From: a virus
Length of the DNA: 64,000 nucleotides
Reading direction: 5' to 3' (one strand)
IMG/VR virus record: IMGVR_UViG_3300045988_157167
Location: 1-64,000 of that record
A program made the translations under genes and the position numbers. The notes under the pieces are model-generated. The model ran no database searches, was not told the origin of the DNA, and saw only the letters and a list, made by a program, of their open reading frames with translations. Below are positions 2,160 through 55,248 of the stretch, piece by piece. Each line of letters starts with the position of its first letter. The first letter of the stretch is position 1.

Positions 2160-5120
2160 CTATTCTGTATAGTAAATTCTTACTGTTCCGTTACTTAGTG
2201 CTGAGTAATGACTTTTATCGTATGTTGATTGAATACCAAAGCCTTTTATCGTTCCGCTTTTAATTCCATTTAAAACAGTCGAATCTGTAATTGTAACTGT
2301 TCCTTTTTTGCCCCATGCTAGTGATAGTGTTTTATTACAACTAGCATAAAAACTAGGTGTTGAACTAGGTCTTCCAGAATATGTATGTGCTTGAAACACA
2401 TGAGAAGTTGATGCAGAATAACCTATATCGCTACTTCTAGTCACATCTATTTCAATTTTTGTTATATTCTTGCCTTTCACTTCAGCAAATTGTGAACCAT
2501 AGAACCAATAACCATTACAATCGCCATAACCCCAATCACCTTGTCTACATTTTCCTCTACCTTCCCAGTTATTGTAAACAGAACTTCTATATGTGTCTGC
2601 ATATTTTGGTTTAAATGTTTCAAATCTAGTTGTTGTAGGGTTTACAGTAGTTGTATTTGAACCGCTATCTTTTGAAGATGCAAAAGTAACTCCTGTAGAA
2701 ATTATTTGTCCGTTACCACTTGTGAATGTATTATTTCCTCCACCTGCTTGTTGTCCTGGATATAACACAATTTTTGCTCCTGTACCAGCATTCCATGAAT
2801 TTCCAGTCGAAAGACCAGAAGATGATTGACAATACAATTCAGTCATCGAATAAGTTCTACAATTATATTTACAACCTACAAATGATATATTTTCCATATA
2901 CACTTTTGATTTTTGAGTTGCTCCAACTCCTACAGAATTGGAATTTACACTGTCGCCATAAACTTTTAAGTTATATAGATTTACGTTAGGGCAATCAGAA
3001 AATATAGTAGTATAATAATAACTTCCTACATTATAACTAGTATAAGGCATTATAGAACCCATCGTAGTGTCTGTGGTACTATTACCCCCATAAATACTGT
3101 ATTTGGCATTATTATATATACTTCGTATAGTTCCTTTTATTGTGTTACCACATAGAAATATATTGACTAGTCCATTTACATGTCTTCTCAACTCAAGATT
3201 TTCTGTTGTATTTGAAGTTAGATAGATTTCTACTGTAAAACCATTAAGATTCAACGGTAAATCATCTAAATATTGTGAAATTGTTTCTCCACTTGATACA
3301 TAGATAGTTTTATTTTCAGAAAGTGCAGGCGGAATATCTGCTGATATCAAAGTATCTACATTTAAAGAATCACATGTAAAATTACCTCTTACATTTAGAT
3401 CCAAAATATCTAATTCCCCTTCATCAGTAATTTTCCAACCAGAACCTTCCATTAATCCGTTGATTAATATTTTCTTAGCTGACAATTGAATGTTAGAAGA
3501 TGCTATTGCTTGTATTAAGCTATCAGTCAAAGTTATGCTTGAACTTGTAGAGCCTTTTTGCACTATCCATTCAAATTTTTCAGCAGTTTGTGTTGCTGTA
3601 GATATAGCTGTTTCAGCCTTAAAATTTGCTTCCCATTCACTACAATATTGAGGGTCTGTAAATCCAACTGAACCATCAGTATAGAATATTTTATAAGCAC
3701 TCCATAAATATTTTCCTTCTATATATGCGGGTATATCAAATCTCCAGCCAGATGCCGCAAATGTAGGTGCTTGTGTCTTAGAAACATGAACAAAATATAT
3801 AGTTATTATTTTTTGTACACCTACGCCTGTATCCCCGGTAGTTCCCTGTTCACCTTTTATTTTAGCCCATGTGTAACTGTTGACTGTTGTAGGGTCATCT
3901 ATATTAAAGTCAGTGCATGTCCCTATGTAATCTCCTACATCTTCACCATTATTATTTGTAAATGTTAAACCTCCATCATTGCTATATTTAATATGAAGGT
4001 AAGTTGTTCGGCCATCTCCGTCTTTTCCTGGGATTCCTTGCTCACCTCGAGGCCCTTGCAAACCTTGAAATCTATACCATGTATATTTAGAAGGTTCTGT
4101 ACTATCTTGTTCTGTAAAATCTACATAAGTTCCGATATACTCGCTTGGAGTTTCTGTCATTTGAGAAGAGTATGTAGGATTTTCCACAGCAGAATATTTA
4201 ATATGAAAATAAGTAGTTTTACCAGATTCCCCTGCTGGTCCTTGAATCCCTTGCTCACCTTGAGGTCCCTGCAAACCTTGCAAACCTCGTGGTCCTTGAA
4301 CACCAGCCATACAAACTGCATCTCCAGTTGAACTTGTCCCATCAGCTTTGGTATATACAGTTCTTATCCATAAGTAGCTACCTTCTGGAATATTAGTAGG
4401 TACTGTTGTCGACCATGTTCCTCCTACCTGTTCAGTTTTACTTGTAGAGATATAATATTCATTATAAACTTTAGTAACTCCCTGTTTAATACTATTACTA
4501 TTATTAGCAACAGTGCTTTGTATTCTCTCTACATTTTGCTCTATTTGGGAGTATTTATCTAATGCTGCCTGTGCTGTATCTTTTGCATTTGATGCTATAC
4601 CGGATATTTCCCCAACTTGTGACGTAAATCCGTTCATATCCTGCTTAAGAGTTGAATATAACACTTTTAATTTAACTTTATTTCCATCAGCATCTTCTAC
4701 AAATCCATCAGATACTAAAGATTCTATTTTGCCATTTTGTTCATCTACTATAAGTTTTGTCTGTTTAAGTTCGGGGATTTTTTCTCCATCAATATACAAA
4801 ACACCATCTTCATCTAAATATAAAGTCGTTTTTTCTCCGTTATTCGTAAGGATATTTACTATGCTTTTTATATCAGCATCTAATTTTCTATCACTTACAT
4901 TCTTAATTTGTTCTCTTAAATCATTTTCTTTTTCTTTTTCTAGTATTCTCTTAACTTCGTTGTAGTTTTCAGTATAAGTAGCATGTGCCTTTTCTAAATC
5001 GTATTTGTCATCTTGTGTTATTTTTCTATTTGTTATAACTTTTTCAAGTAGATTTGTTAATTCATCATAACTAGAAGAGAAATTATCATGCTCTCTAGTT
5101 ATAGTATCTATATTGCTCAT
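2160..5120 (-). CDS. tail fibre / receptor-binding protein with collagen-like repeats
   Basis: 986 aa with an N-terminal coiled coil. Two G-X-Y tracts (GVQGPRGLQGLQGPQGEQGIQGPAGESGK; GLQGPRGEQGIPGKDGDG) are each followed by a TTY(F/L)HIKYS...YIG...YTW module. Confidence 0.75.
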   Translation of the reverse strand: MSNIDTITREHDNFSSSYDELTNLLEKVITNRKITQDDKYDLEKAHATYTENYNEVKRILEKEKENDLREQIKNVSDRKLDADIKSIVNILTNNGEKTTLYLDEDGVLYIDGEKIPELKQTKLIVDEQNGKIESLVSDGFVEDADGNKVKLKVLYSTLKQDMNGFTSQVGEISGIASNAKDTAQAALDKYSQIEQNVERIQSTVANNSNSIKQGVTKVYNEYYISTSKTEQVGGTWSTTVPTNIPEGSYLWIRTVYTKADGTSSTGDAVCMAGVQGPRGLQGLQGPQGEQGIQGPAGESGKTTYFHIKYSAVENPTYSSQMTETPSEYIGTYVDFTEQDSTEPSKYTWYRFQGLQGPRGEQGIPGKDGDGRTTYLHIKYSNDGGLTFTNNNGEDVGDYIGTCTDFNIDDPTTVNSYTWAKIKGEQGTTGDTGVGVQKIITIYFVHVSKTQAPTFAASGWRFDIPAYIEGKYLWSAYKIFYTDGSVGFTDPQYCSEWEANFKAETAISTATQTAEKFEWIVQKGSTSSSITLTDSLIQAIASSNIQLSAKKILINGLMEGSGWKITDEGELDILDLNVRGNFTCDSLNVDTLISADIPPALSENKTIYVSSGETISQYLDDLPLNLNGFTVEIYLTSNTTENLELRRHVNGLVNIFLCGNTIKGTIRSIYNNAKYSIYGGNSTTDTTMGSIMPYTSYNVGSYYYTTIFSDCPNVNLYNLKVYGDSVNSNSVGVGATQKSKVYMENISFVGCKYNCRTYSMTELYCQSSSGLSTGNSWNAGTGAKIVLYPGQQAGGGNNTFTSGNGQIISTGVTFASSKDSGSNTTTVNPTTTRFETFKPKYADTYRSSVYNNWEGRGKCRQGDWGYGDCNGYWFYGSQFAEVKGKNITKIEIDVTRSSDIGYSASTSHVFQAHTYSGRPSSTPSFYASCNKTLSLAWGKKGTVTITDSTVLNGIKSGTIKGFGIQSTYDKSHYSALSNGTVRIYYTE

Positions 5121-5134
5121 AATAATTCCTCCTT

Positions 5135-8100
5135 CTATAATTTCTTAGGTCTAGCACAGAATAGTATCTTATCTGTTTTGTTTTCTGTGATTAATCTTGT
5201 TTTTACCCCGTTCGGACATTGTGTCGATTCTATTGTATATACTGTACCTCCATCTTCTGTTGGTCCAATGACAATAGCTGCATGAGAACAATTCATATAA
5301 CGTCCATTCTCACCATTGTCTCTATCCCAAAATACAATGTCTCCAGCTTCCAAGTTTGAGAAATTAGTTATATCAACATCATGTAATACCCAACCATTTT
5401 TTACACAATATTCTGCTTGCTCTGCTGCGTTTCTTGGGAATGTAAATGCCCAACTATAAGCCGTGTTTCGTTTTAATGAAGTCATTTTATGATTTGCATA
5501 AGGAGAATGATCGTAATCTAATCCCATATATGTAAATTTAGTTAATGTACTACAATCTATTTGACCTTTTTTTCTAGTTGAATCATACCACTTACTTAAA
5601 TTCTTGGCTGGATTCGAATATGATGCAGGTGTTTTTACTGCTGTTGTAGAATATTGTCCTCTATACTCTAAATCTGTACGATTTAAGTATGTTTTTGCTA
5701 TTTCAGCAACTTTTTTACCACCCTTAAAAGTGTAAGGTTCAGCATATCCTTCGCCCTTATCAACAGCTACAGACCCATAGTATTTATAATCTATATTTGG
5801 ATTTGCATTGGCCATTATTATAATTCTATATCCTACGTTTGGTCGTGGCACTAATTGTCCTGCGACACAGTCAACACCTTCAAGATAACAAATTTTAGAT
5901 TGAGAGTAACTGATTTCATCCGCAGTCGTAAACATTAACCTAGCATAAAAACTTTTATCAACATCACTATTTAGCCTAAAAGTAAGTGATTTTATAGTTG
6001 TTTTTGGATAATAGTAATTTTTTGTGCTTTCTAGTACAATATCTATTACTTTTCCTTCTCGTTTTGATGCATTACCATCATCATCACCAGTATCGCCATC
6101 TCCAGTGTCTCCTCCACTTCCTGAATCTTTCTTTTTATAACCTATTGGAGTTGCTAATAATTTTTCTTTTATTGCATCATAAAAAACACTAACGCTGGCA
6201 TCATCTTTGAAGGTATAGCCATCACTAGTGTAGCTAGAATTTAATACATTTGTATATGTTTCTAATTTGCTAGATATATCTAATAAAAATACATCGTCTT
6301 CATTATCACAGAATGATTTTATTTGAGTATTATAAGTATCTATAGAAGTATTTACTGTCGAATAATCTGTATAAGCAGTTCCAACGTGCAATTCTTTTAA
6401 TATAAAAATCGGAGTGTTTCTGTATTTACTTTTTAATATAGAAACTAATGTTTTTACTCCGTTTATCCCTTTTTCTGTTAGATCATTTAATCCAAAATGT
6501 GTTAAGACATAAGGAGTTGAACTTGGATAAACTTTATCATCATCTTCAAATAACCCTTCTACTTTGCTTAACAGATTGTTATTATCGTCATAAAAATCAT
6601 ATGCATTTGCTTTTCTAACTGCTTTTATATACACCTCATTCATATCTGTTTTGTCAATAACAGGAGTTTCCTCTACATTGTTATTGTCAACCTCAACAAG
6701 GTCATAAGGTCTTAGACAGAATCCATATTTATATATGTCTGAGTAAACAGCCATATAACGAATTGCCTTTGGCCAATAATCCCATTGTCTAGCATGTGCA
6801 ACCATATGTGTGCCGTCTACTTTACCACAATAAATTAACGTATGGTGTGTAAATTTATACGCCATAGCTTTTGCTCTAGTTAATGTAGTTGGACACTCCT
6901 TATTGCACATCATTATTATGTCACCTGGTAACATATCTTCTATAGATGTTTTAGTTATCTTAAACATTGTATAACCACTTTTTCTCGTAGCATAGTCAAC
7001 AAGTGTTCCTGCTGCACATAAGGAATCACTATGGAATATACTTTTTAATCCAGCTTCACCATAACAACAAGTGACCATAGAACTACAATCATAGCAGATA
7101 GGATTTTTTATTCCGTAAAAAGTACCTTTTCTTTTGTTAGGCTTTTTAAAGTTCCAAGTACGATAACTTTGGTCATATGTTGCCAACTTATCTGTATGTT
7201 GTTGAACTATAGCTTTTGCCGTATCAACTATAATTTGTCTTATATCAGATGCACTTGCTTGGCCTGTTCCTTTTGGAGTAGATACACCAACTCCATAGCC
7301 TAATTTATTACCTTGTGCATCTTTGTAATAAGGCAATTGGCCATTTACTACTTTATACCAACATAAATACAATTCTACGTTGTTTGGAGTTCCTAATCCT
7401 TTAGTGTCTTTAAAAATTTGTCTATAAGCTGCAAAATCAAATTTTCTACTATCTAATTCCTCGTAAACTTTTAGTTTTGTCTGATTAGATTGAGAACTCA
7501 AATAATAAGAATCAACAAATGTATATCCGTACTTGTCGCACACATATTTACTTACTATCCAGTTAAGTGAGCCTTGGCCCATATTATTAGCTACTAATCC
7601 AGCAAATATATTTCCATGAGCATAGTCAATAGCTTGACGTAGTTCCCAACAACCAAATCTTATTTGATTTAGAATGTTTCTATCTACTGTTATACCGCTA
7701 AGCGTTGCATTTCCACCTTTATATGGGGTCATTGTCGAATAGCTCGGAGTGAAAGATTTAGTTGTACCATCTATATAAGTGATAGTTTGCTTTTTATTGA
7801 AGTACGTTGACCTTTCACACTGCATTAGTCCGTATCCGCCTGTTGAACCTGTAGTGCTATAAGGGTCTCCTCTACTTTCACCCATTATAACCGCGTATAT
7901 TAGATTTGGATCTAGACCAAACTTTCTAGCATAATATTCAACTATAAGATATAATTTATATTTATTTCCTGTAGATGATAAATTAGTAAGTTCTGCTTTG
8001 TTTTGATATTTACCTATGTCATATTTCTCATATAATGCTAATGCTTCTGCATATTTGTCATTAGTTTTATCAGTAGTTGATACAGTTTTAGAGTTTTTAA

Positions 8101-9469: not shown

Positions 9470-11464
9470 CTAATCCAACCACCTTTCATTAAAAATGATA
9501 GAACTTGTAATATCAGCATCACTTGAAATTTTTAAATTATATTCACCTGGAGGTATTTCAAAGAAGTTGCTGCCTATGTCGACATGTTCCATGTTTTTTA
9601 CATTATTTATATAAACTTCATTGTTAGCAAAATCTACTTTTAATGTATCGCCTTGCTTAAAAATAGTTGTATTAAATTCTTCATCTTCTCCATCTTCGTT
9701 TAATTTTTCTACAACTAATCTATTAAAAGTCATTGTATCAACAACTTTTTTATCTGCATATTTACCAAAGAAGATAACAAGATGATTTAAATCTCCAAGA
9801 GGAAACTTATCACTCTTCATTCTTTCACTTGGCAATGTTTTTATTATTTCTCCAGCCTCATTGTATTTTATTACTTCTGCATACCATTCATTATTTTCTC
9901 TTCTTATTGTAAAATGTCCTTTAAATTCGTTCCAGTTTCCTGTTTTACCACTTCTAGGTGTTTTTTTAGTAACAGTTAAACTATCATCAGACCCAGTTGT
10001 TGTAATTATCGGGTCGATTTTAGGTATACTAAATTCTGCATCTTTTAAAAACTCTACATTTCCAACTTGCACAAGTGGATAAGTAGCTTCAAAGTATTCG
10101 TTTTCATCACAAAGCATAACTTTAAAAAGTTTATTACCTTTTTGATCTAAGCCATAACATTCGACGATGCCCATTTTATCTTCTGCTGTATCAACTTCTT
10201 TGTCTGTTTCTATTTGAACTTTATCTCCTTCTATAATGTAATCTGTATAAACATATCCAGTTTGGCCTTTATAAGTTGCTTTAGTATATTTACCTTCTTT
10301 ACTCTTTGGATATACAACAATACAAGTGCCTTTTGGGATTGTAGCTAAAAGCTTTGATTTTTTACTTCCAGTAGCTCTTAAAGAAACTGATTGTTTTGTG
10401 TAATAATTTGCTGTTGTTACTGTAACTTTTTTCAAACCTGTTGAAATTTTTATCCAACCTGTTTGACTACTATAAGTAGTTTTTATCCAGCCGTTTACAA
10501 TCTCATCAGCAGTTAAATAAATACCTTTTTTTATACTTATCAAAGTTTTACTACTAGAAAGTCTTTTTTCTTTTAGTTTTACAGTGGTAGATGTTACTTT
10601 GTATTTAGTCTTTTCTGTTAAACTTGTAGAGCCAGATTCATTATATTCAAGTTTTCCTGTACTATCATGATAAAAATACATACTACATTCAAAATTCGTT
10701 ACATTTTCAGATAAGTTATATCTTAGTGCCGGTCCATGCCAATCGTCTCCACTACCATAATCAGCTGCCTGTATGCACCAACTAGAACCTCCATCGTTTG
10801 GTTGTATTGTTCCGCTTATTGACCTTTTGGCATCGACTTCTCCCGTTACTGATACAAATTTTTCTGTAGTTTCACAAGGCTCATCAACAATAGTAGAACT
10901 TTTTTCTTTTTTCTCATTAGTTAAGCGAGGATATTCACCAACAAGAATTGCTTTTTCGTTTTGGCCATCTATTTGACAATAAGTTGCTTCACCATTAAAA
11001 TCAACCTCGACTATTGCAGGAGTGCTTGTATTTCCCTCATTTACAACACTTAGAGTTTTTTGGCCATTAAAAAGTTTAGCATTTATATTGTGTGAAAAAG
11101 GAATAGGGCATATAAATGACATTTTTATTCTTCGCATACCTTTAGTGATTTTTTCTTTTGAAAATTTACCATCAGGAATTGCTAAATAAACTCTTTCATT
11201 ATCATCAATAACAAGTTTCTTTTCTTCAGAAACATCAAATATAGATGACAACGTATCAATAATATCTTTACAATCTTCCTCTGTATCTGCTTTTATATCA
11301 AAAGTAATTGTTATTTCTTTATAATCATATTTAGAATTTTGATAATATCGACCATTTTCAGATGGAGGATCTAAAAAGTTATTTACTCTTTCTGACATCA
11401 AAGTTGTATCTATTGAAATAACTTTGACAAACATTTCTAAATCAATGTCATTAAACTTAAACAC
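9470..11464 (-). CDS. distal tail protein (Dit) with inserted SH3b-like domains
   Basis: Lies immediately downstream of the TMP with a siphovirus tail-family N-terminus. The central part has two SH3b-like segments (...GIYLTADEIVNGWIKTTYSSQTGWIKIS; ...GTCIVVYPKSKEGKYTKATYKGQTGYVYTDYI). Confidence 0.75.
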   Translation of the reverse strand: MFKFNDIDLEMFVKVISIDTTLMSERVNNFLDPPSENGRYYQNSKYDYKEITITFDIKADTEEDCKDIIDTLSSIFDVSEEKKLVIDDNERVYLAIPDGKFSKEKITKGMRRIKMSFICPIPFSHNINAKLFNGQKTLSVVNEGNTSTPAIVEVDFNGEATYCQIDGQNEKAILVGEYPRLTNEKKEKSSTIVDEPCETTEKFVSVTGEVDAKRSISGTIQPNDGGSSWCIQAADYGSGDDWHGPALRYNLSENVTNFECSMYFYHDSTGKLEYNESGSTSLTEKTKYKVTSTTVKLKEKRLSSSKTLISIKKGIYLTADEIVNGWIKTTYSSQTGWIKISTGLKKVTVTTANYYTKQSVSLRATGSKKSKLLATIPKGTCIVVYPKSKEGKYTKATYKGQTGYVYTDYIIEGDKVQIETDKEVDTAEDKMGIVECYGLDQKGNKLFKVMLCDENEYFEATYPLVQVGNVEFLKDAEFSIPKIDPIITTTGSDDSLTVTKKTPRSGKTGNWNEFKGHFTIRRENNEWYAEVIKYNEAGEIIKTLPSERMKSDKFPLGDLNHLVIFFGKYADKKVVDTMTFNRLVVEKLNEDGEDEEFNTTIFKQGDTLKVDFANNEVYINNVKNMEHVDIGSNFFEIPPGEYNLKISSDADITSSIIFNERWLD

Positions 11465-14400
11465 TTGTTATTCCCTCCAATCTATTTAATCTTTTTTCAT
11501 CTCGTTTATTTTTTTCATCTATAGGTTTTGCAATTATATCTACAACTTTTACTTTATCCATATTAGCTTGGACTTGGATAGGTCTATCACTTATATCTCC
11601 TATAGTTTCTTTTAATGTTTCTCCTAGCGAATTAGCTATTTCTTTTACTGTGTTATTACTTACACTATTTACAATTTTAAGATTACTGTTACTACTAGCT
11701 TCTAATGAAAATTTAGTTGTTTCAGATTGAACAGCCATTTTCATTGCATTTTGCATTTCTGAAGTTACATCCCTAGCTACGGCATATACTTGTTCAGCTT
11801 TATTTTTCATACCAACAATTAAACCTTCGTCCATATATTCTCCATAATCAGTGGTAACTTTTGAAGGCGAATTTATTTTAGCAGTTTTTTTCATTTCTGC
11901 ATTAACTTGATTAACAAGACTTCTTGCTGCACTAACTGCTCTTGCTGTACCACTTTGAATGCCTTGAGTAACACCATTTGCTAATTGTTGACCAATTTCT
12001 CTTGATTGAGTTCTAGCAACATTTTTCATGCTTATCATTTGTCTTGTAAAGTTATTTCTTGCTTCTCTTGATTGAGTAGTTATAACTCTTTTCATTGATA
12101 TCATTTGATATGTAACAGCATTTCTAGCAAGTGTAATTTGTGTTCTAGATACATTTCTAATTGATATCATTTGAGATGTAAGTTTATTCCTAGCCTCTGA
12201 AACTTGAGTTGATATAACATTCTTCATGCTTATCATTTGTGATGTAACAACATTTCTAGCATTTGTAATTTGATTACGTATTATATTACTAATAGATAGA
12301 AATTGGTTTCTTACTATATTAGATACATTTAAGCATTGATTTCTAGCTACGTTTGATATACTTACAAATTGATTTCTTGCTATATTTGCACATCCAACTA
12401 AACTAGTTCTTAAATTATTTTGTAATGATGTAAATGCTTGAGAAATTGAATTTGAAACACTTTGTACTGTTGTCTGTAAAGCTGTTAATTGTGTTTGTAA
12501 TGCTTTTATTTCATCTGTGTTCATACTAGAAAGTTTAGAATTTATTTTGTTACTATTAGAATCTTTGCTAGTATTAAGAGGTTTTTCATTACCAGTCTTT
12601 TCATCAGCATAAGATTCCCCTGTAAACCAATTTACTAAACCTTGTATTATACCGGTACCACCTTTGCTAAAATCAGGTTTAGAACTAGTAATCCAACTTG
12701 TTATTGCTTGCCAAAGTTCTGATGCTCTACCAGTAAATCTGTCAGTTAAGTTTTCAATAAAACTATCAATAAAAATATCTGCAAAGCTACCAGTTAAAGA
12801 TTTTATTTGTTCACTTCCTTCTACCCAGGAATTCATTACTGATGCAACTGCTTCTAAAGCATCATGTATATTGTCTGAATTGTTTTTTATTCCATCTCTT
12901 AAAGCATCTAAAATAACTTTACCAGCTTCCTCAACTTCTGGAGCAACATCTTTAATAAATTGAGAAATTTGTTTAATAGCACTTGAAATACCTTCTCTTA
13001 TATCACCTTTACTTTTTATAATTCCTTGACAAATTTGATGTATAATTTCTTTACCGATAGCTAATACTCTGCTTAATCCACCTTTAGTTATAAAAGTATT
13101 AATTCCACTAAAAGCCTGTTGAATTGCTCCTGATATATCTGCATTTCTTATATATCCAAGCATATTGTCTAATGCTTTTTTGAAATTATCAAATGTATAT
13201 AAGACTTGGCCATCTTCTACAGTGCCTTCTTTATTTCCACTTCTCCAAACACTGAAAAACTCAGCTAATTTTTCAGAAGTAGATTGAATAGCTGGTTTTA
13301 AGAACTCAAATCCTTCTATAGCAACGTCTTGCAAAGCAGATGATAAAATTAATAATTTGTTTTTAGTTGTTTCATCCATAGCTTGCGCCATTTTTTCAGA
13401 TAATCCAGTTACTAAATTTAAATTATCACAATATAATTTGAATTGTTCATCAGATAAACCACATATTTCATTTATTTCATCTAAAGAATCAGATAAACCT
13501 AAATTTGTTAAAATTTGTTCTCTAGTCGCTTGATCCATGTTGCCAAATTTTTCTCTTAACTGAGTTAAATTTGCTATTAAGTCTATTTGGCCGGTAGATG
13601 CGCTTTTAGCAGACATTCCATATTCTTTTAATACTTTATTAGCTTCCTTAAGTGACATATCTGGATTTAACTTATCAATTATTTCTTGTTTAGAAACAAC
13701 ATCTTTTAACCCTTTAGCACTATCTACTATTCCTTTTGTATTTTCATTAATCATGTCACAAGTAGCACTATAGTCAAAAGCATCATCATTAATTTCTTTA
13801 TAAGTTAATCCAAGTTCTTTAAATTGCTTTTTCTGAGAATTTGTAGGATTTCTCATTGCATCTAATACACCGAATAAATCTTCAACATTTTTCGATGTTA
13901 CTTTTGCATCAGAACCTAAAACTTGTAATGCTAAAGCCATATCTTGTGTAGTCATGTTGAATGCAGCACCTAAATATTCTGTTTGACTTAAAACTTCTTT
14001 TAAGTTATCTATTCTTTTACTACATTCTTCTCCAGTAACTCCTGCTTCTCCTAAATTTTGATTCCAATAAGAAACTGTTTGAGTAGAGTTTTGTACACTA
14101 TCAGTTAAACTATCATATGCATCATCTGTAGCATTAACAATTGATAGTAAACCTGTCATACCCGTTTTCCCAGCTAAATCTTTACATGCAGCTGCTTGCT
14201 CAACTAAAGGTAATGATTTTAAACTACTTCTTAAATTTCTTAATGTTTTATCTAAGTCAACTGAACCATCTTTCGCAGTAATAAGTTCTATTCCGTATTT
14301 TTCCATGGCCTTTGCTACAGTATCGGTAGGTGCACTTAAATTTGCCAATAGTGTTCTCATTGCAGTACCTGCACGACTTCCCTTTACTGATGAATTCGCC

Positions 14401-14687
14401 ATAAGGCCGATAGCTACGGATAAATCATCCATAGAAACGCCCAATGTCCCAGCTACTGAACCCGCATATTTCATTGTTTCTCCCATCATTTCAACATCTG
14501 TATTACTACGAGTAATAGTTGCTGCCATATAGTCAACAAAGTTTGATGCTTGAGATGCGGACATATTCATTGCTGTAAGACCATCAGTGACGATATCACT
14601 AGCTGTGCCAAGCTGAGTGGCCCCAATTGTAGTTAAGTTTAAAACATCTTTAATTGATGCGAGTGACTCTTGAAGTGAAAATCCAGC
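11457..14687 (-). CDS. tail tape measure protein, exon 2 (1076 aa)
   Basis: Begins AGFSLQESLASIKDVLNLTTIGATQLGTASDIVTDGL, continuing the conserved TMP core from exon 1. The 15 codons upstream (MEIIHKVYQSFTYRY) fall inside intron domain VI. Confidence 0.85.
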   Translation of the reverse strand, partial: AGFSLQESLASIKDVLNLTTIGATQLGTASDIVTDGLTAMNMSASQASNFVDYMAATITRSNTDVEMMGETMKYAGSVAGTLGVSMDDLSVAIGLMANSSVKGSRAGTAMRTLLANLSAPTDTVAKAMEKYGIELITAKDGSVDLDKTLRNLRSSLKSLPLVEQAAACKDLAGKTGMTGLLSIVNATDDAYDSLTDSVQNSTQTVSYWNQNLGEAGVTGEECSKRIDNLKEVLSQTEYLGAAFNMTTQDMALALQVLGSDAKVTSKNVEDLFGVLDAMRNPTNSQKKQFKELGLTYKEINDDAFDYSATCDMINENTKGIVDSAKGLKDVVSKQEIIDKLNPDMSLKEANKVLKEYGMSAKSASTGQIDLIANLTQLREKFGNMDQATREQILTNLGLSDSLDEINEICGLSDEQFKLYCDNLNLVTGLSEKMAQAMDETTKNKLLILSSALQDVAIEGFEFLKPAIQSTSEKLAEFFSVWRSGNKEGTVEDGQVLYTFDNFKKALDNMLGYIRNADISGAIQQAFSGINTFITKGGLSRVLAIGKEIIHQICQGIIKSKGDIREGISSAIKQISQFIKDVAPEVEEAGKVILDALRDGIKNNSDNIHDALEAVASVMNSWVEGSEQIKSLTGSFADIFIDSFIENLTDRFTGRASELWQAITSWITSSKPDFSKGGTGIIQGLVNWFTGESYADEKTGNEKPLNTSKDSNSNKINSKLSSMNTDEIKALQTQLTALQTTVQSVSNSISQAFTSLQNNLRTSLVGCANIARNQFVSISNVARNQCLNVSNIVRNQFLSISNIIRNQITNARNVVTSQMISMKNVISTQVSEARNKLTSQMISIRNVSRTQITLARNAVTYQMISMKRVITTQSREARNNFTRQMISMKNVARTQSREIGQQLANGVTQGIQSGTARAVSAARSLVNQVNAEMKKTAKINSPSKVTTDYGEYMDEGLIVGMKNKAEQVYAVARDVTSEMQNAMKMAVQSETTKFSLEASSNSNLKIVNSVSNNTVKEIANSLGETLKETIGDISDRPIQVQANMDKVKVVDIIAKPIDEKNKRDEKRLNRLEGITSV

Positions 14688-15368
14688 ATACCGATAGGTA
14701 AAACTTTGATATACTTTATGTATAATCTCCATCTTTTCCCCCGGTCCAAACCGTACGTGCGACTTTCATCGCATACGGCTTTCCATCGTAAAATTTTACG
14801 ACTAGAGGCCTTCGCTCCTAATAGTTTTATCCTCCTTTATACATTACTGTATATAGTAACTATCGGCTATTAATCAACACTACTATGCTTCCTCTGACTT
14901 CTTCTATTTTCAACGATATAGCAATCTCCAATAGAAGATCTCCTAAGTTCCAATAAGATTATCCCTTTTTTTACTTCGACTTAGGTTTCCTCTGTATGTT
15001 ATAAGCTATATATAACTGACTACTTTAATCATCATATATTTAGTAAAACTTTAAATGTAAACAAAGTACGAATGTTTACATTAACTTATAACACTTCAAA
15101 CAAGGATTCGTCTCCTAACCATATCAAAGTTTTTAAAGATGACCACTCCATATAGTTATTTATATAACATCAGGCTTTGTCCTTACCGTACTTTATACAA
15201 TTCGAGTGCTATCTCTTATGCATAACGGGGTATCATCAATATCACTTTAAAGTAGTTGTGATAGAAAGAAATTTCATCTTTCAATTCATCTTATTAGTTA
15301 AAGTTATAAATAACCTCTCAGCTTTTGTTCTCTATCTCAGAGCTTTTATATGCTGAAACTTAGCGTAC
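14688..15368 (-). mobile_element. ORF-less group II intron (681 nt) in the tape measure gene
   Basis: The minus strand starts GUACG and ends ...CGGUAU. Domain V AAGCCGUAUGCGAUGAAAGUCGCACGUACGGUUU lies at 14748-14781, followed by a DVI-like helix with a bulged A. There is no ORF, and the exons join in frame. Confidence 0.85.
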
Positions 15369-15926
15369 CATACCCATGTATTGGAAAGCTTCACTTACCT
15401 CTGTACTGGTGTACCTAGTGGTTGCTCCGTATTGCCTAGTTGTTTCTGTTAAGACTTCAATATCTTTTCCAGTAACACCCATAATTGCTGATACACGAGC
15501 CATTGAACTTTCAAATTCAATAGCATCTGCCATTAAGGAACTGAAATCAAAATTAAAATCTGTAACTTGACTAAAACAATCTAAAATAGTATTTGTTGCA
15601 TTCTGAACTATATCTACAACAGGCTGTAATTTTTCAGATATATTTTGCAAGTTTTCAAAGAAATTCTGTTTACTAGCATCATATAGTTTTGAAAAAGCAG
15701 TTATCATTGTAGTTACTGCTGCAACAACTCCAGCCGCAACTGGTCCAACAATTCCACTTAAAGCTTTAAAGGTATTTGAAAATGTTCCAACAATAGAACT
15801 CATTTCTCCAAATACTTTGCCAACACCACCTAAATCAGCAAAGGCATTTTTAAGTTCATTTAACTGACCTTCAACTTGGTCAGATTTTAATTCAACTTCT
15901 ATAACAACTTTTCCATCTGCTGCCAT
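15369..15926 (-). CDS. tail tape measure protein, exon 1 (186 aa)
   Basis: Ends ...FESSMARVSAIMGVTGKDIEVLTETTRQYGATTRYTSTEVSEAFQYMGM. The track ORF continues VR-stop into the intron. Confidence 0.85.
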
Positions 15927-28615: not shown

Positions 28616-28693
28616 TGGCTGGCTTAGTGAGATTCGAACTCACAACAAACCATGGTCCGTAGCCATGTGCTCTATCCGTTGAGCTATAAGCCA
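28616..28693 (-). tRNA. tRNA-Arg (anticodon ACG), CCA encoded
   Basis: Hand-folded cloverleaf: acceptor UGGCUUA/UAAGCCA, D stem GCUC/GAGC, anticodon stem CAUGG/CCAUG with loop CUACGGA, T arm GUGAG-UUCGAAU-CUCAC. The variable loop is unusually long at 7 nt. Confidence 0.75.
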
Positions 28694-28699
28694 ATATCT

Positions 28700-29560
28700 A
28701 TTAGAAGGCTTGAGATTAGAGCCTTCTGTAGACACCTTTCACGGCATTATTTATTCTCCGTTTATCCACGCACCTAATACGTATTGTCCATGACTGGTTG
28801 TAATTTTATAGTGCCACAAAACCCTAACACGAGGCACTCTACTATAGTACTACTCAACACTTCGTATTCTGTCTGCCTTGCGAGCAACAAAGGTTTGCAA
28901 AACCACCATGCAACTTCATGTTAAACGATTCACCCTTGGGAGGTGTTACGCACTAGATTATATCATGCAATGATATTCTAGTATTAAGCCACTTTCATAC
29001 TATAAGGGAACAGACTTTTCCTTTTATTGTTTTGTTATCATAGACAATTTATCATCCAAAATTAATATTCTCTATGCCTGTATAAATCTGAATTAAATTT
29101 GACAGACGTTGTGCTGTTCTTGAAGATTCGTTTCCTTTTGAGACACGAAATACTTCACAACATCAGTGTGTTTCATTGAATTCTTACTCCACGTTGTTAA
29201 TACATACTCCAGCCCTTTCACTGTTTCACTATTAACAATGGTTAGTGCCCTTTGTTATCAGCATCGGACTATATAACCTCCTGATTATGTCTCGCTACAT
29301 GACCAATTTGGCGTGAGGTAAATTATTCAGTGCCACCTGAAAATCTTCGATATACGGTTCGCCTTTTCGAAGACTGTCCCTCTTGGGTTACGTAGTTATC
29401 TCCACTACTATCAATTCATGAAGACGTTGGACATTCAGTTCTGCTTAGATGGACTAGTTTAACTAGCGGCATGTAGTCAGCATGCCTTTACACTGCTCAC
29501 ACAATGCTATCCTAAAGATACTAAGCTACCTAAAATAGATTTAGATTTATTTTTTAAAAC
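28700..29560 (-). ncRNA. large (~870 nt) highly structured noncoding RNA between two tRNAs; GOLLD/ROOL-class candidate
   Basis: No ORF on either strand, and visibly GC-richer than the flanks. Many local helices, e.g. GGCAUG-CUGACUA-CAUGCC, UCUUCGA...UCGAAGA, AGUGCC...GGCACU, AGAAGGCU-CUAAUCUCA-AGCCUUCU. Shares its promoter with tRNA-Gln. Confidence 0.6.
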
Positions 29561-29567
29561 ACATACA

Positions 29568-29641
29568 TGGCTGGGCGTAATAGATTCGAACTATTATTCC
29601 AGGAATCAAAATCCTGTGTCCTACCTTTGAACGAACACCCA
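29568..29641 (-). tRNA. tRNA-Gln (anticodon UUG), CCA encoded
   Basis: Hand-folded 74-nt cloverleaf: acceptor UGGGUGU/ACGCCCA, D stem GUUC/GGAC, anticodon stem CAGGA/UCCUG with loop UUUUGAU, T arm AAUAG-UUCGAAU-CUAUU. Confidence 0.85.
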
Positions 29642-29757: not shown

Positions 29758-30339
29758 TTATTGATATTCTTTCATTCTTCTAATTAGTGTAGCTTTGCTT
29801 ATTCCTGTTACTTCTGTAACTTGCTTATAACTCATGCCACTTTGCTTTAGATCAATGGCATGCTTAATTTGTTTATTTGAATACTTTTGCGGTCTACCTT
29901 CCGTAAAATCTTCTCTTTGTCTAGCTATTGCCTTGCCTTCTTTTGTTCTTTCAACTATCATGTCTCTTTCAAATTCGGCAAATCCAAGGAAGATAGTTCT
30001 TATTAGCTTTCCGTTAGGTGTATTATCCATTAAACCTAAGTTTACTATATGAACCTTTATATCTTGTTCTAGTAATTTGTCTATTATGCTTAATCCATGT
30101 ATTGTACTTCTAGCAAATCTGTCTAACTTAGTTACTACTAATGTATCTCCTGGTTTTAATTGTTTAAGAAGTTTATCAAAATTTTTGCGATCTTCTTGTT
30201 TCTTTGTTCCAGTATAAGAATCAACTACTATGTTTTCTTCTAAACACCCATTTGCTAATAATATTTCTGTTTGACCTTCTAATGAGTTTCCATCTTTCTT
30301 TTGTGAGTAAGTACTAACTCTTGCATATCCATATTTCAT
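29758..30339 (-). CDS. small serine recombinase (resolvase/invertase family)
   Basis: 193 aa with the N-terminal catalytic motif [25 protein letters not shown], and a C-terminal HTH ([24 protein letters not shown]). Confidence 0.9.
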
Positions 30340-30438: not shown

Positions 30439-31701
30439 TTAAACATATGCAAATGTATATCCATGCGTTGTTTTTCCTTTTCCTTGTAATACCCTTTCTA
30501 TATTTTTTCTTGGGATATTTAGTTTTCTTGCACAAATCCCTATTCCCTCAATAATTTCTTCTGAATTATCTTTTAAATTTGTTGCTTTAATAGTTTTCTT
30601 AGGAGCAACATTTTTGCTATATTTAGCTTTTACTGCCAATATAGAAGTGTAATCCTTACTTTCTATATATGGAATTAACTGTTGTTTTACATTTATAGCA
30701 TCTTCTTCTGTTTTAAAATGGCCTATTGGTATCTGATTTCCATTAAAGGTTATTCTTAAAAACCAACTTTTCCTTTTAATATCATAATTAACTCCTTTTT
30801 CTTTGCTCTTATACATATTTTTATTTCTTATTTTTCTTAGCTTTTTACATTGCTCTTGTAATCCTTCTCTTTCACACATTTTTTCAAGTGTATATCTCGA
30901 ATGTCCAGTAAAATTTTCCATATCTATAAACGTTTCGATACCTTTTTCCATTCCTTTTAAAAATTTTTGTTTCATTCGAGTATTTTTCACATCTTTAAAA
31001 ACTTTACCATAATCTTTTATTTTTTCTTTGTAAAAAATAGTTCTAATGCTATTTTCTGCAAGATTATATTTATTACAAAGTTCTTCTAAAGAATAATTAT
31101 AAGAATATAAATCCTCTATAATTTTTTTATTTCTACACTCTATAAAATTTAATTGTTTGATTTTTTCATTTAAATCGGATCTCACATCTATCCAAGAGTC
31201 AAGATTTTTAATGCTATAAATGATATTTTCTCTAACTCCAGTTAATTTAGATATTTTCTTTATAGAGATTGGATTATTTTCTAGTACTGACAACATTTCC
31301 TTAACCTTAGCAATTTGATGCTCTGTATAATCACTTCTTTCTCTATTTACTTTCTTTAAATTTTCTAATCTTTTCTTTCGTATTTCTTCTGGAATTTCAT
31401 TTAGAAAATAGTCTCCACCTTCTGTCATATTAAATCCATTATTATAAGTATCATATTTTTTTATATAATACTTTTCTAAATCATTTAAAATGTCAAGTTC
31501 ATCACAATAATATATAGCTTTAAACTTAAAAGCATCTTCTCCATATTTATTCCAACTTCTTTGAAGATATTCATTATCATGATTACCTCTATTTAAAGCA
31601 CTTATATGGCTTTTCCATCTTTTTTCAAAATCTTGGATCGTTTGTCCTATATACATATCACCTGTTACTACATTTGTTATTGAGTAAATTCCAAAATACA
31701 T
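30439..31701 (-). CDS. GIY-YIG homing endonuclease with AP2-like DNA-binding domain
   Basis: GIYSITN...YIGQT...RWKSH...N..LQRSWNKYG matches the GIY-YIG module. The central part has HTH repeats. The C-terminal GVNYDIKRKSWFLRITFNGNQIPIGHFKTEEDA is AP2-like. Confidence 0.85.
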   Translation of the reverse strand: MYFGIYSITNVVTGDMYIGQTIQDFEKRWKSHISALNRGNHDNEYLQRSWNKYGEDAFKFKAIYYCDELDILNDLEKYYIKKYDTYNNGFNMTEGGDYFLNEIPEEIRKKRLENLKKVNRERSDYTEHQIAKVKEMLSVLENNPISIKKISKLTGVRENIIYSIKNLDSWIDVRSDLNEKIKQLNFIECRNKKIIEDLYSYNYSLEELCNKYNLAENSIRTIFYKEKIKDYGKVFKDVKNTRMKQKFLKGMEKGIETFIDMENFTGHSRYTLEKMCEREGLQEQCKKLRKIRNKNMYKSKEKGVNYDIKRKSWFLRITFNGNQIPIGHFKTEEDAINVKQQLIPYIESKDYTSILAVKAKYSKNVAPKKTIKATNLKDNSEEIIEGIGICARKLNIPRKNIERVLQGKGKTTHGYTFAYV

Positions 31702-54000: not shown

Positions 54001-55248
54001 TTATATCACACTATCTAACCAATAAATTTTATTATATTTCCAAAGTAATCTACATTTTCTTACATTGACTTTTTTGCAATGTTTTGTAGGACTTTGAAAA
54101 TTTAATGCGTTCAAATGTGGATATAATGCTGTAACATATCCTTTATGAGTTTCTCCATTTCTGTAAGTATATTCAACCAAATCTCTATGTTTAATTCCTA
54201 ATACATTATCTGTTTTTGCTTTTGATTTTCTACGCATCGGTTTAATCATCCATTCTTTTATATTGCAAGTATCTGGAAAACAATTTGTTATACAAATAGC
54301 ATCGTTTGAATGAGATTTTTCTATATTCCATTCAATTCTTTTATTTGCAGTATCTCCACCTGTTGTAAGATGTAATATTCCTAATTGTTTAATATTTTCT
54401 CTAAGATAATTTTTACCTTGCATGACATGCATTGCATAATCAAATCTTTTTGGCTTACTTTTTATTTTGGTGAAATATCTCTCTTCAAATTCTCGTTCTT
54501 TCCCTTCTGTCTTTTGATGACAAGAAGAACAAAGAGTAATGAGATTCCCAATAGTATTTGCTCCACCAAATCTCTTTGCTCGAATATGATGAACCTCAAG
54601 TACAGTATTTGTTTTTCCACATTCTTGACATTTACAACTATCTCTTAATATTGTCGCTTTTCTAAGATTTTCATCTAATCTATTATTCTTCTGATATTGC
54701 CAATTATAAGGTTTATATCCATCGGCCATTGCTCTTATATCTATTGCTACATCTTCAAGATAATATTCTTTAATATTTATCCATTTATTTAATTGATATA
54801 AAACTCTAAGAATAGAATCTTTCTTTTGTTTAATACTTGGCGCTAATCTATTAGTTTTTTTTGAAGATGCTCTATTATTGAATCTAGGTTTACGATATCT
54901 TTTATGATATCTACGGTATTGTCTATATCCTCTACGAACATCCATTAAGTGTTTTACATCTTGTCTTTGTTCAATAGTTCCTTTAAATACAACTTTATTT
55001 TTACTTGGACATTTTTGAACAATTGCTATTCCAACATGAGAACTACCATCGTCAATTCCACAAACCATATGACTTTCATCTTCGTCATCAGGTTCAACTT
55101 CTTTTTCTAACTGAATTACCATAGGATATTTACTTTTTAATTTTGCTCGACCTTTTCTAATCAAATACCAACCTTTATTTACTTTAGTTGGAGCTAAAGG
55201 TCTATTGTTTTTATCTACAACAAAACAATATTCAATTTTATTTTCCAT
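54001..55248 (-). CDS. iscB: IscB (OMEGA RNA-guided nuclease; RuvC split by HNH)
   Basis: PLMP-like N-terminus (NNRPLAPTK), Ruv[12 protein letters not shown], Arg-rich bridge [22 protein letters not shown], Ruv[20 protein letters not shown]...LEVHHI...[10 protein letters not shown], Ruv[14 protein letters not shown], and a C-terminal TID-like domain. Confidence 0.85.

Follow-up and report, generated by a model that had tools for sequence, protein, structure and literature searches.

A group IIB intron without an open reading frame splits the tape measure gene in an uncultured siphovirus of clostridial type

The tape measure gene is needed by every long-tailed phage. How should we understand a locus at which this gene appears as two separate open reading frames (ORFs); are two proteins made, or is a single coding sequence interrupted? 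The locus lies in a 64,000-nucleotide (nt) stretch of viral DNA, positions 1–64,000 of the IMG/VR record IMGVR_UViG_3300045988_157167, which was analyzed at its full length and is called the window below; all of its genes are on the minus strand. An upstream ORF of 188 amino acids (aa; 15926..15360, minus strand) ends ...EAFQYMGM-VR-stop, a downstream ORF of 1091 aa (14732..11457, minus strand) opens MEIIHKVYQSFTYRY-AGFSLQ, and 681 nt (15368..14688, minus strand) lie between them; when position 15369 is joined to position 14687, an open frame of 1262 codons results. An earlier reading of this DNA, the original prediction, had taken the two ORFs for the halves of one tape measure protein (TMP), and the ORF ends, the 681-nt gap and the 1262-aa joined product are all reproduced from the ORF list and its translations. 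We think it very likely that the gap is an intact ORF-less group IIB intron in the late-operon TMP gene of an uncultured clostridial siphovirus, and that splicing by branching would yield the 1262-aa TMP. The gene is laid out as follows.

15369–15926, minus strand: exon 1 of the tape measure gene, 186 codons, ending ...YMGM and holding the first ~26 positions of the Pfam PF10145 match
14688–15368, minus strand: ORF-less group IIB intron, 681 nt, GUACG...AU, matched by Rfam models RF00029 and (sub-threshold) RF02004, 76.5% identical to an intron of Clostridium phage c-st and precisely absent from two sibling-phage contigs
11457–14687, minus strand: exon 2 of the tape measure gene, starting AGFSLQ..., 1076 codons plus stop

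What makes the gap recognizable as a group II intron? Rfam models, run over the whole window at gathering thresholds, gave four matches, among them RF00029 (domains V/VI) at 14783..14688 (minus strand), which covers the full model (1–77) at 64.2 bits against a gathering threshold of 40 (E = 2.6e-10 in the 64-kb window). This match is far beyond chance, and its final aligned base is the proposed last base of the intron. The gap begins GUACG and ends ...CCUAUCGGUAU, i.e. GGUAU, so that the termini claimed in the original prediction, including an AY (here AU) end, are those in the sequence; the claimed domain V at 14781..14748, with its AGC triad, 2-nt bulge and GAAA loop, lies entirely within the RF00029 match, and the claimed domain VI helix, with an unpaired A at 14695 followed by 7 nt, reappears in both the Rfam alignment and the RNAalifold fold. 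The covariance-model search proposed at the time also included domains I–IV, and here the result is more modest: in a permissive scan of a 1-kb region, RF02004 (group-II-D1D4-5) matches 15302..15132 (minus strand) at 31.8 bits, below its gathering threshold of 34.5 (local E = 7.6e-5). The same model also matches most phage IIB introns that lack an ORF or bear a homing endonuclease gene in Table S1 of Merk, Jones & Eddy, NAR 2025, who report no D1–D4 match for the c-st intron (PMC12350094). One remark of the original prediction does not hold: the GC content of the intron, 0.325, lies between that of exon 1 (0.342) and that of exon 2 (0.313), so that the intron is no richer in GC than what surrounds it, and only the area of domain V is locally richer.

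The element was also said to contain no ORF, and no reverse transcriptase (RT) or maturase was seen in it or elsewhere in the window; both statements stand within the scope of our searches. There is no minus-strand ORF of at least 40 aa in the gap (the only ORFs, of 55 and 59 aa, are on the opposite strand), each forward frame of the intron has 16–21 stop codons, and domain IV, which has shrunk to a hairpin of 14 nt, is too small to hold an ORF. Pfam found no RVT or maturase match among the 20 window ORFs of at least 251 aa, and tblastn against the window with four YADD-motif ORFs from other loci bearing domain V (presumed RTs, not Pfam-checked) returned nothing. Because neither an intron ORF nor a window RT was found, we regard the element as an ORF-less derivative and not as an autonomous retroelement.

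Does the rest of the element look like a ribozyme? Among 50,697 phage records, blastn found one full-length relative, at 114619–115263 of Clostridium phage c-st, 76.5% identical over 94% of the query. We aligned the two introns (698 columns) and derived a consensus fold with RNAalifold, which has 182 pairs, 30 of them kept through compensatory changes on both sides. The parts of the intron were assigned as follows.

14943–15363, minus strand: domain I, closing stem CUAAGUU/AACUUAG (RNAalifold)
14896–14942, minus strand: domain II (RNAalifold)
14804–14892, minus strand: domain III (RNAalifold), preceded by J2/3, AGA, at 14895..14893
14787–14800, minus strand: domain IV, 14-nt hairpin CGUAAAA/UUUUACG (alignment with c-st)
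14748–14781, minus strand: domain V, AGC triad, 2-nt bulge, GAAA loop (Rfam alignment)
14690–14745, minus strand: domain VI, predicted branch point at the bulged A14695 (Rfam alignment)
15369–15374, minus strand: intron-binding site 1 (IBS1), GGUAUG, the six terminal bases of exon 1, pairing with EBS1
15065–15070, minus strand: exon-binding site 1 (EBS1), CGUACU, in the loop of the hairpin 15081..15055, pairing with IBS1
15190–15193, minus strand: 4-nt bulge AAGU of the IIB-type lambda/epsilon' kind, in a conserved stem (RNAalifold), aligning to AAGC of the RF02004 consensus
15117–15125, minus strand: 5' half, UAUGG, of an 11-nt GAAA-tetraloop receptor, candidate zeta, in an internal loop of domain I (motif position)
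14978–14987, minus strand: 3' half, CCUAAG, of the same receptor (motif position; RNAalifold)

The compensatory pairs include five of the seven in the closing stem of domain I, four in the stem of the EBS1 hairpin and one in domain VI (C:G to U:A). Domain IV lies outside the RNAalifold consensus, and by eye c-st has CAAUAUA/UAUAUUG at the same place; this hairpin, too, has thus been kept via changes on both strands. The UAUGG and CCUAAG segments we take, from established knowledge of the motif, to function as the tetraloop receptor, and a candidate alpha–alpha' pairing was noted by eye only (AAAGCU:AGUUUU in the window, AUUAAA:UUUAAU in c-st). Class IIB is recognized by a 4-nt lambda/epsilon' bulge with consensus AARC (PMC12350094). 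In the window intron, the GU of AAGU can pair with A3-C4 of GUACG (epsilon–epsilon'), a putative contact that would explain the unusual third base of the intron; five introns of Table S1 begin GUAUG (PMC12350094).

The placement of the 5' splice site can be judged separately, as the EBS1–IBS1 pairing cannot be seen by covariance models and so provides independent evidence. EBS1 is CGUACU in the window intron and CGCCUA in c-st, and both lie in identical alignment columns (306–311); each is fully complementary, counting Watson–Crick and G-U pairs, to the six bases that end its own exon 1, GGUAUG and UGGGUG, respectively. The comparison also shows an intron lineage that has been retargeted from one tail gene to another.

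If the gap is an intron, what protein does its removal restore? The spliced protein has a single match to Pfam PF10145 (PhageMin_Tail, the domain of TP901-type tape measure proteins), residues 161–359 to profile positions 2–201 of 201 at 162.1 bits, running in one stretch across the junction at 186/187; the unspliced downstream ORF alone matches positions 28–201 only. With the junction region as query, 95 homologues were found among 5.8 billion proteins, and YM(G/A/S)(M/T/A)AG(W/F) is gap-free at the junction in P0001, P0002, P0005, P0009, P0010, P0014, P0015, P0019, P0022, P0026 (from Clostridioides difficile), P0042 and P0049. The nearest TMP relatives, P0003, P0011 and P0013 (88–92% identity), are continuous through the site as well. 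The alignment to TMP homologues suggested in the original prediction thus comes out continuous at the junction, and joining YMGM to AGFS does restore the conserved TMP core.

The most direct view of the boundaries comes from phages in which the site is empty. Two sibling-phage contigs, L002 (ENA ERZ27305051) and L004 (ERZ27261481), have flanking DNA that is 96–97% and 84–95% identical to the window, respectively, and their site is intron-free. With a slash for the junction, they read ...ATGGGTATG/GCAGGATTTTCA, i.e. TATATGGGTATG/GCAGGATTTTCA, with GCAGGA… on the exon 2 side and, in longer left context, ...AGCTATATGGGTATG/GCAGGATTTTCA.... These alleles fix the boundaries to within a one-base G ambiguity, and the GU...AY rule together with EBS1 resolves the rest. 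The group II interpretation of the original prediction is accordingly borne out by covariance matches, by a homologous published intron with compensatory changes, by EBS1–IBS1 pairing, by the single Pfam match and by intron-less alleles. An alternative 5' splice site at a GTATG 5 nt upstream (…ACATGG/GTATGGTACG) was rejected, as it breaks the frame and conflicts with the empty-site alleles and the shared EBS1 pairing.

The two intron-less contigs are most diverged from the window at the insertion site itself, with 80–85% identity in the nearest ~100 nt. The differences cluster at positions -9 to -16 of exon 1 (window 15377–15384), where TTCCAATAC stands against TTTAGCTAT and Gln becomes Ser; IBS1 is unchanged. 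Co-conversion or target-site divergence could account for this pattern.

Is the intron peculiar to one phage? The same site is occupied in four other contigs, L008 and L012 from IMG/VR and L136 and L144 from metagenomes, which come from at least three datasets and have both exons open. Their introns differ from that of the window at 2–3 of 681 nt (99.6–99.7% identity), while their flanks are only 79–98% identical to the window and the adjacent 100-nt exon bins only 79–96%, over the compared region 14400–15900. At intron positions 430 and 480, the four copies agree on G, against A in both the window and c-st. A conserved intron island in mosaic flanks, polymorphic among near-identical phages, suggests recent horizontal spread as the simplest reading; extreme purifying selection is an unlikely cause because the c-st homologue is only 76% identical. 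The intron has probably been mobile recently, given this near-identical island in diverged flanks and an EBS1 that differs from that of c-st to match another gene. It would have spread either by retromobility with an RT supplied in trans or by homologous recombination between co-infecting phages.

Beyond these copies, full-length relatives are few. With a two-lineage profile, nhmmer found only the c-st copies (L001, L009) and the four carriers, the other loci sharing domains IV–VI at most. When metagenomes were scanned with the domain V sequence, 24 loci were found, two of them full-length near-identical copies and the rest sharing domains IV–VI at most. A viral scan with GAAGTCAGAGGAANCATAGTA returned c-st only; the carriers were missed because G replaces A at intron position 480. 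A scan of genome contigs with the 16-mer ATAAAGTACGGTAAGG gave 100 loci, all of them chance matches by blastn.

How would such an intron be removed? The transcript would fold into a six-domain ribozyme in which EBS1 would hold the six terminal bases of exon 1. A14695, bulged from the domain VI helix, would then attack the 5' splice site, and the freed exon 1 would attack the 3' splice site after ...GGUAU, releasing the lariat and joining the exons as ...UACAUGGGUAUG/GCUGGAUUUUCA... (in other context lengths, ...TACATGGGTATG/GCTGGATTTTCA... and ...TACATGGGTATGGCTGGATTTTCA). The spliced mRNA would be translated into one 1262-aa TMP; on unspliced RNA, translation would run only two codons into the intron before meeting a stop. 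Given that the intron encodes no protein and that no RT was found in the window, splicing would be either independent of protein or aided by a factor from the host or from a co-resident element.

Several points weigh against this account. We infer splicing only from the intactness of the element and from the need for a whole tape measure protein, and the structural comparison spans only two diverged lineages, the remaining copies being near-identical. The D1–D4 score falls under the Rfam gathering threshold, as described above, and GUACG differs from the GUGYG consensus at position 3, for which the AAGU bulge can compensate. What about a second exon contact, EBS2–IBS2? For exon positions -7 to -30, we found no complement of at least 5 bp at homologous positions in both introns. 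The candidates considered lie within covariation-supported stems (alignment columns 128–132 and 426–433) or at non-homologous positions, and an 11-bp complement between intron positions 317–327 and exon positions -27 to -17, which has no c-st counterpart, was treated as chance. The pseudoknot interactions of the c-st intron are scored '+' by Merk et al. (PMC12350094), and loss of EBS2 is documented for the ORF-less intron C.te.I1 (PMC4024640), although we make no such claim for the window intron.

Could the gap be something other than a functional intron? That the ORFs are two genuinely separate genes, with an unrelated insertion or an intergenic regulatory RNA as spacer, would agree with gene-caller practice, which makes two genes of such pairs (as with CST128 and CST127 of c-st), but we find it scarcely credible: in siblings and in distant homologues, a single protein runs unbroken through the junction, which contradicts the case of homologous phages with two separate proteins raised in the original prediction, a single Pfam match crosses that junction, and Rfam assigns the spacer to the group II introns. 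It is improbable that the phage is defective and the intron a relic that has decayed and no longer splices, with the TMP truncated or made in two pieces, although the intron is ORF-less, its EBS2 was not found, and a G-rich stretch upstream of the ATG at 14732 means that the downstream ORF could in principle be translated alone. That stretch simply makes up the 5' strand of the domain VI helix, and both c-st and the Rfam consensus conserve it; moreover, the catalytic motifs are all intact, the 30 compensatory pairs relative to c-st show selection on the fold, the four other carriers keep the intron nearly unchanged between open exons, and the break comes midway through the conserved PF10145 domain.

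Granting an intact intron, which helper, if any, would it use? In vivo splicing may need a maturase/RT in trans from the host or from a co-resident group II intron, in which case the TMP and infectious particles would be made only in compatible hosts. This is a sub-hypothesis about the helper and not a rival on the identity of the element; we hold it to be possible, if somewhat doubtful, and the host-range or timing checkpoint drawn from it is speculation. A trans-acting maturase is the textbook expectation for splicing in vivo, and it would suit an ORF-less intron in a window where no RT was found. Domains V–VI are 74–82% identical to those of RT-encoding introns on Firmicutes plasmids (Lysinibacillus, Enterococcus and Bacillus), and the retargeting of EBS1 relative to c-st implies past mobility by reverse splicing, which requires an RT. 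Most bacterial group II introns need their own protein in vivo (PMC3919590), and trans-acting RTs have been proposed for ORF-less phage introns by Merk et al. (PMC12350094). On the other side, no host genome or matching protein was identified in the analysis. A maturase is usually specific to the lineage of the intron that encodes it, and our searches revealed no RT-encoding intron whose domain I is related, the full-length relatives being the c-st intron and the near-identical copies only. In addition, C.te.I1 of Clostridium tetani splices in vivo without an intron-encoded protein anywhere in the genome (PMC3919590). If a host maturase is indeed needed, tail assembly would be gated by the host. 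The window and c-st introns might instead form a small phage-adapted lineage of protein-free ribozymes that splice efficiently without a maturase and nonetheless spread between related clostridial phages and from one tail gene to another. We consider this unlikely; it would fit the near-identical island in diverged flanks and the retargeted EBS1, and if true, it would make the lineage a model system for group II introns that persist and move although they encode no protein.

Another phage contig in IMG/VR, the 97.8-kb L121 (IMGVR_UViG_3300036942_000180), has a group II domain V/VI at 4231–4142 that is 81% identical to that of the window intron. Elsewhere in the locus, on the same (minus) strand, a 636-aa YADD-motif ORF (not Pfam-confirmed) starts at ~1188 nt, counted in the reverse complement. 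We presume that this is a phage group II intron with an RT of its own.

How does the intron compare with those already described? Its closest relative, the c-st intron, lies between CST128 (a YomG-like minor tail protein) and CST127; a search of PLSDB found the element also in the C. botulinum plasmid NZ_CP063817, where it is annotated 'phage tail spike protein'. Table S1 of Merk et al. lists it (NC_007581 115302..114619) as an ORF-less intron of class B that is 683 nt long, has an AGC triad and GTATG...AT ends and lies in a 'minor tail protein' gene (PMC12350094). The two introns are similar in size (681 and 683 nt) and share their AGC triad, GUAYG 5' end, AU 3' end, minimal domain IV hairpin, EBS1 in the same hairpin loop and location in a tail structural gene of a clostridial phage. 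They differ in the gene interrupted, which is the tape measure gene here and that for the YomG-like minor tail or tail spike protein in c-st, in their EBS1/IBS1 pairs (CGUACU:GGUAUG versus CGCCUA:UGGGUG) and in the genome that carries them, siphovirus-like and of the ~60-kb class here and a 186-kb plasmid prophage in c-st.

More distant resemblances are instructive as well. The IIB introns of Firmicutes jumbophages (AR9/PBS1, Internexus, LPJP1, S6, PALS_2) likewise have group-II-D1D4-5 as their best Rfam 5' model, and they include ORF-less forms of 580–690 nt with GUAUG/GUGUG...AU ends and domains V–VI 75–89% identical to those of the window intron. Unlike the window intron, they interrupt RNA polymerase, terminase or DNA polymerase genes, and similarity in domain I is undetectable; several carry homing endonucleases or share a genome with an RT-encoding intron. 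C.te.I1 of C. tetani (class B/IIB; PMC3919590, PMC4024640), compared here by description, is also a clostridial ORF-less intron in a protein-coding region with no evident EBS2–IBS2. It has, however, a CGC triad, no branch A, hydrolytic splicing, a shifted 5' site and alternative 3' sites, whereas the window intron has AGC, a canonical bulged A and IBS1 directly beside GUACG. Finally, the group I introns that Tourasse & Kolsto (2008; PMC2504315) described from TMP genes of Bacillus cereus-group prophages are of a self-splicing type, lie in the conserved part of the TMP at several alternative sites and are patchy among related phages, much as here, but belong to another ribozyme class with another splicing chemistry.

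What, then, is new? From curated phage genomes, Merk et al. list 20 group II introns, of which six have no ORF, and they report hits in ~9,229 IMG/VR contigs (PMC12350094), which may already include the two IMG/VR carriers L008 and L012. The statement in the original prediction that group II introns are rarely reported in phage structural genes is therefore outdated as of 2025, as that list includes the c-st tail-gene intron. Phage group II introns, their ORF-less IIB forms and the closest relative are already published (August 2025), and that TMP genes can contain group I introns is old knowledge (PMC2504315); of the 20 curated cases, none (0/20) interrupts a tape measure gene. The present intron adds a well-documented case, in this gene, to the recently recognized phage group II introns. 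It also comes with a natural comparison set, namely empty-site siblings, siblings with group I introns at two further positions of the PhageMin_Tail domain, and a 76%-identical retargeted relative in another tail gene, which makes it testable how ORF-less group II introns splice in bacteria and spread without a protein of their own. For annotators, there is a warning: an intron-split TMP gene is called as two ORFs, like its c-st counterpart.

The surroundings of the intron are those of a siphovirus-like tail module, in the order major tail candidate, DUF6673, Gp15, TMP, Dit and Tal, so that the TMP gene occupies the customary place of such a gene, with Gp15/DUF6673 upstream and Dit/Tal downstream. 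The portal protein is at most 47% identical to the portals of Clostridium perfringens and C. difficile siphophages, and we therefore regard the phage as an uncultured one of clostridial type with no close isolate. Just upstream of the packaging and structural module, the window holds a full-length GOLLD RNA, a known large phage-associated RNA (Rfam RF02032, 187 bits against a cut-off of 150; 28707–29165, minus strand), flanked by tRNAs at 28619–28693 and 29571–29641 (both minus strand). Three further genes were noted, none of which adjoins the TMP intron; the recombinase and the GIY-YIG/NUMOD endonuclease adjoin the tRNA/GOLLD region, and the RRXRR-HNH endonuclease is in the replication module.

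29758–30339, minus strand: small serine recombinase/resolvase
30439–31701, minus strand: free-standing GIY-YIG plus NUMOD homing endonuclease
54001–55248, minus strand: RRXRR-HNH endonuclease

The TMP core is an intron hot spot. The sibling contig L002, which is without the group II intron, has two group I introns in the PhageMin_Tail domain (RF00028, 106 and 59.8 bits).

L002, 6650–6921: group I intron between SDIVT and DGLTA (window equivalent ~14585)
L002, 7050–7292: group I intron between E(L/M)MG and ETMKY (window equivalent ~14480)

A group I intron of ~270 nt at what we call site C is 100% identical in L002, L004 (~6768–7037) and L144 (~2651–2919). In L012 (5319–6586), the site-C copy is 83–95% related and is enlarged to ~1.27 kb by an ORF of 331 aa, with three CxxC zinc-finger-like motifs, a C-terminal ...DFLIEYDGEQHF... 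and a weak Pfam DUF4379 match; judged from these features, the product resembles the CapR/DUF4379 + EDxHD homing endonuclease family of Merk et al. (PMC12350094). As both hold a site-C copy, L012 and L144 each have introns of both groups, I and II, within the TMP gene. Some of the more distant TMPs (P0001, P0002, P0009, P0010, P0014 and P0015) break off after (A/F)GK, a shared end point that suggests a possible fourth insertion site.

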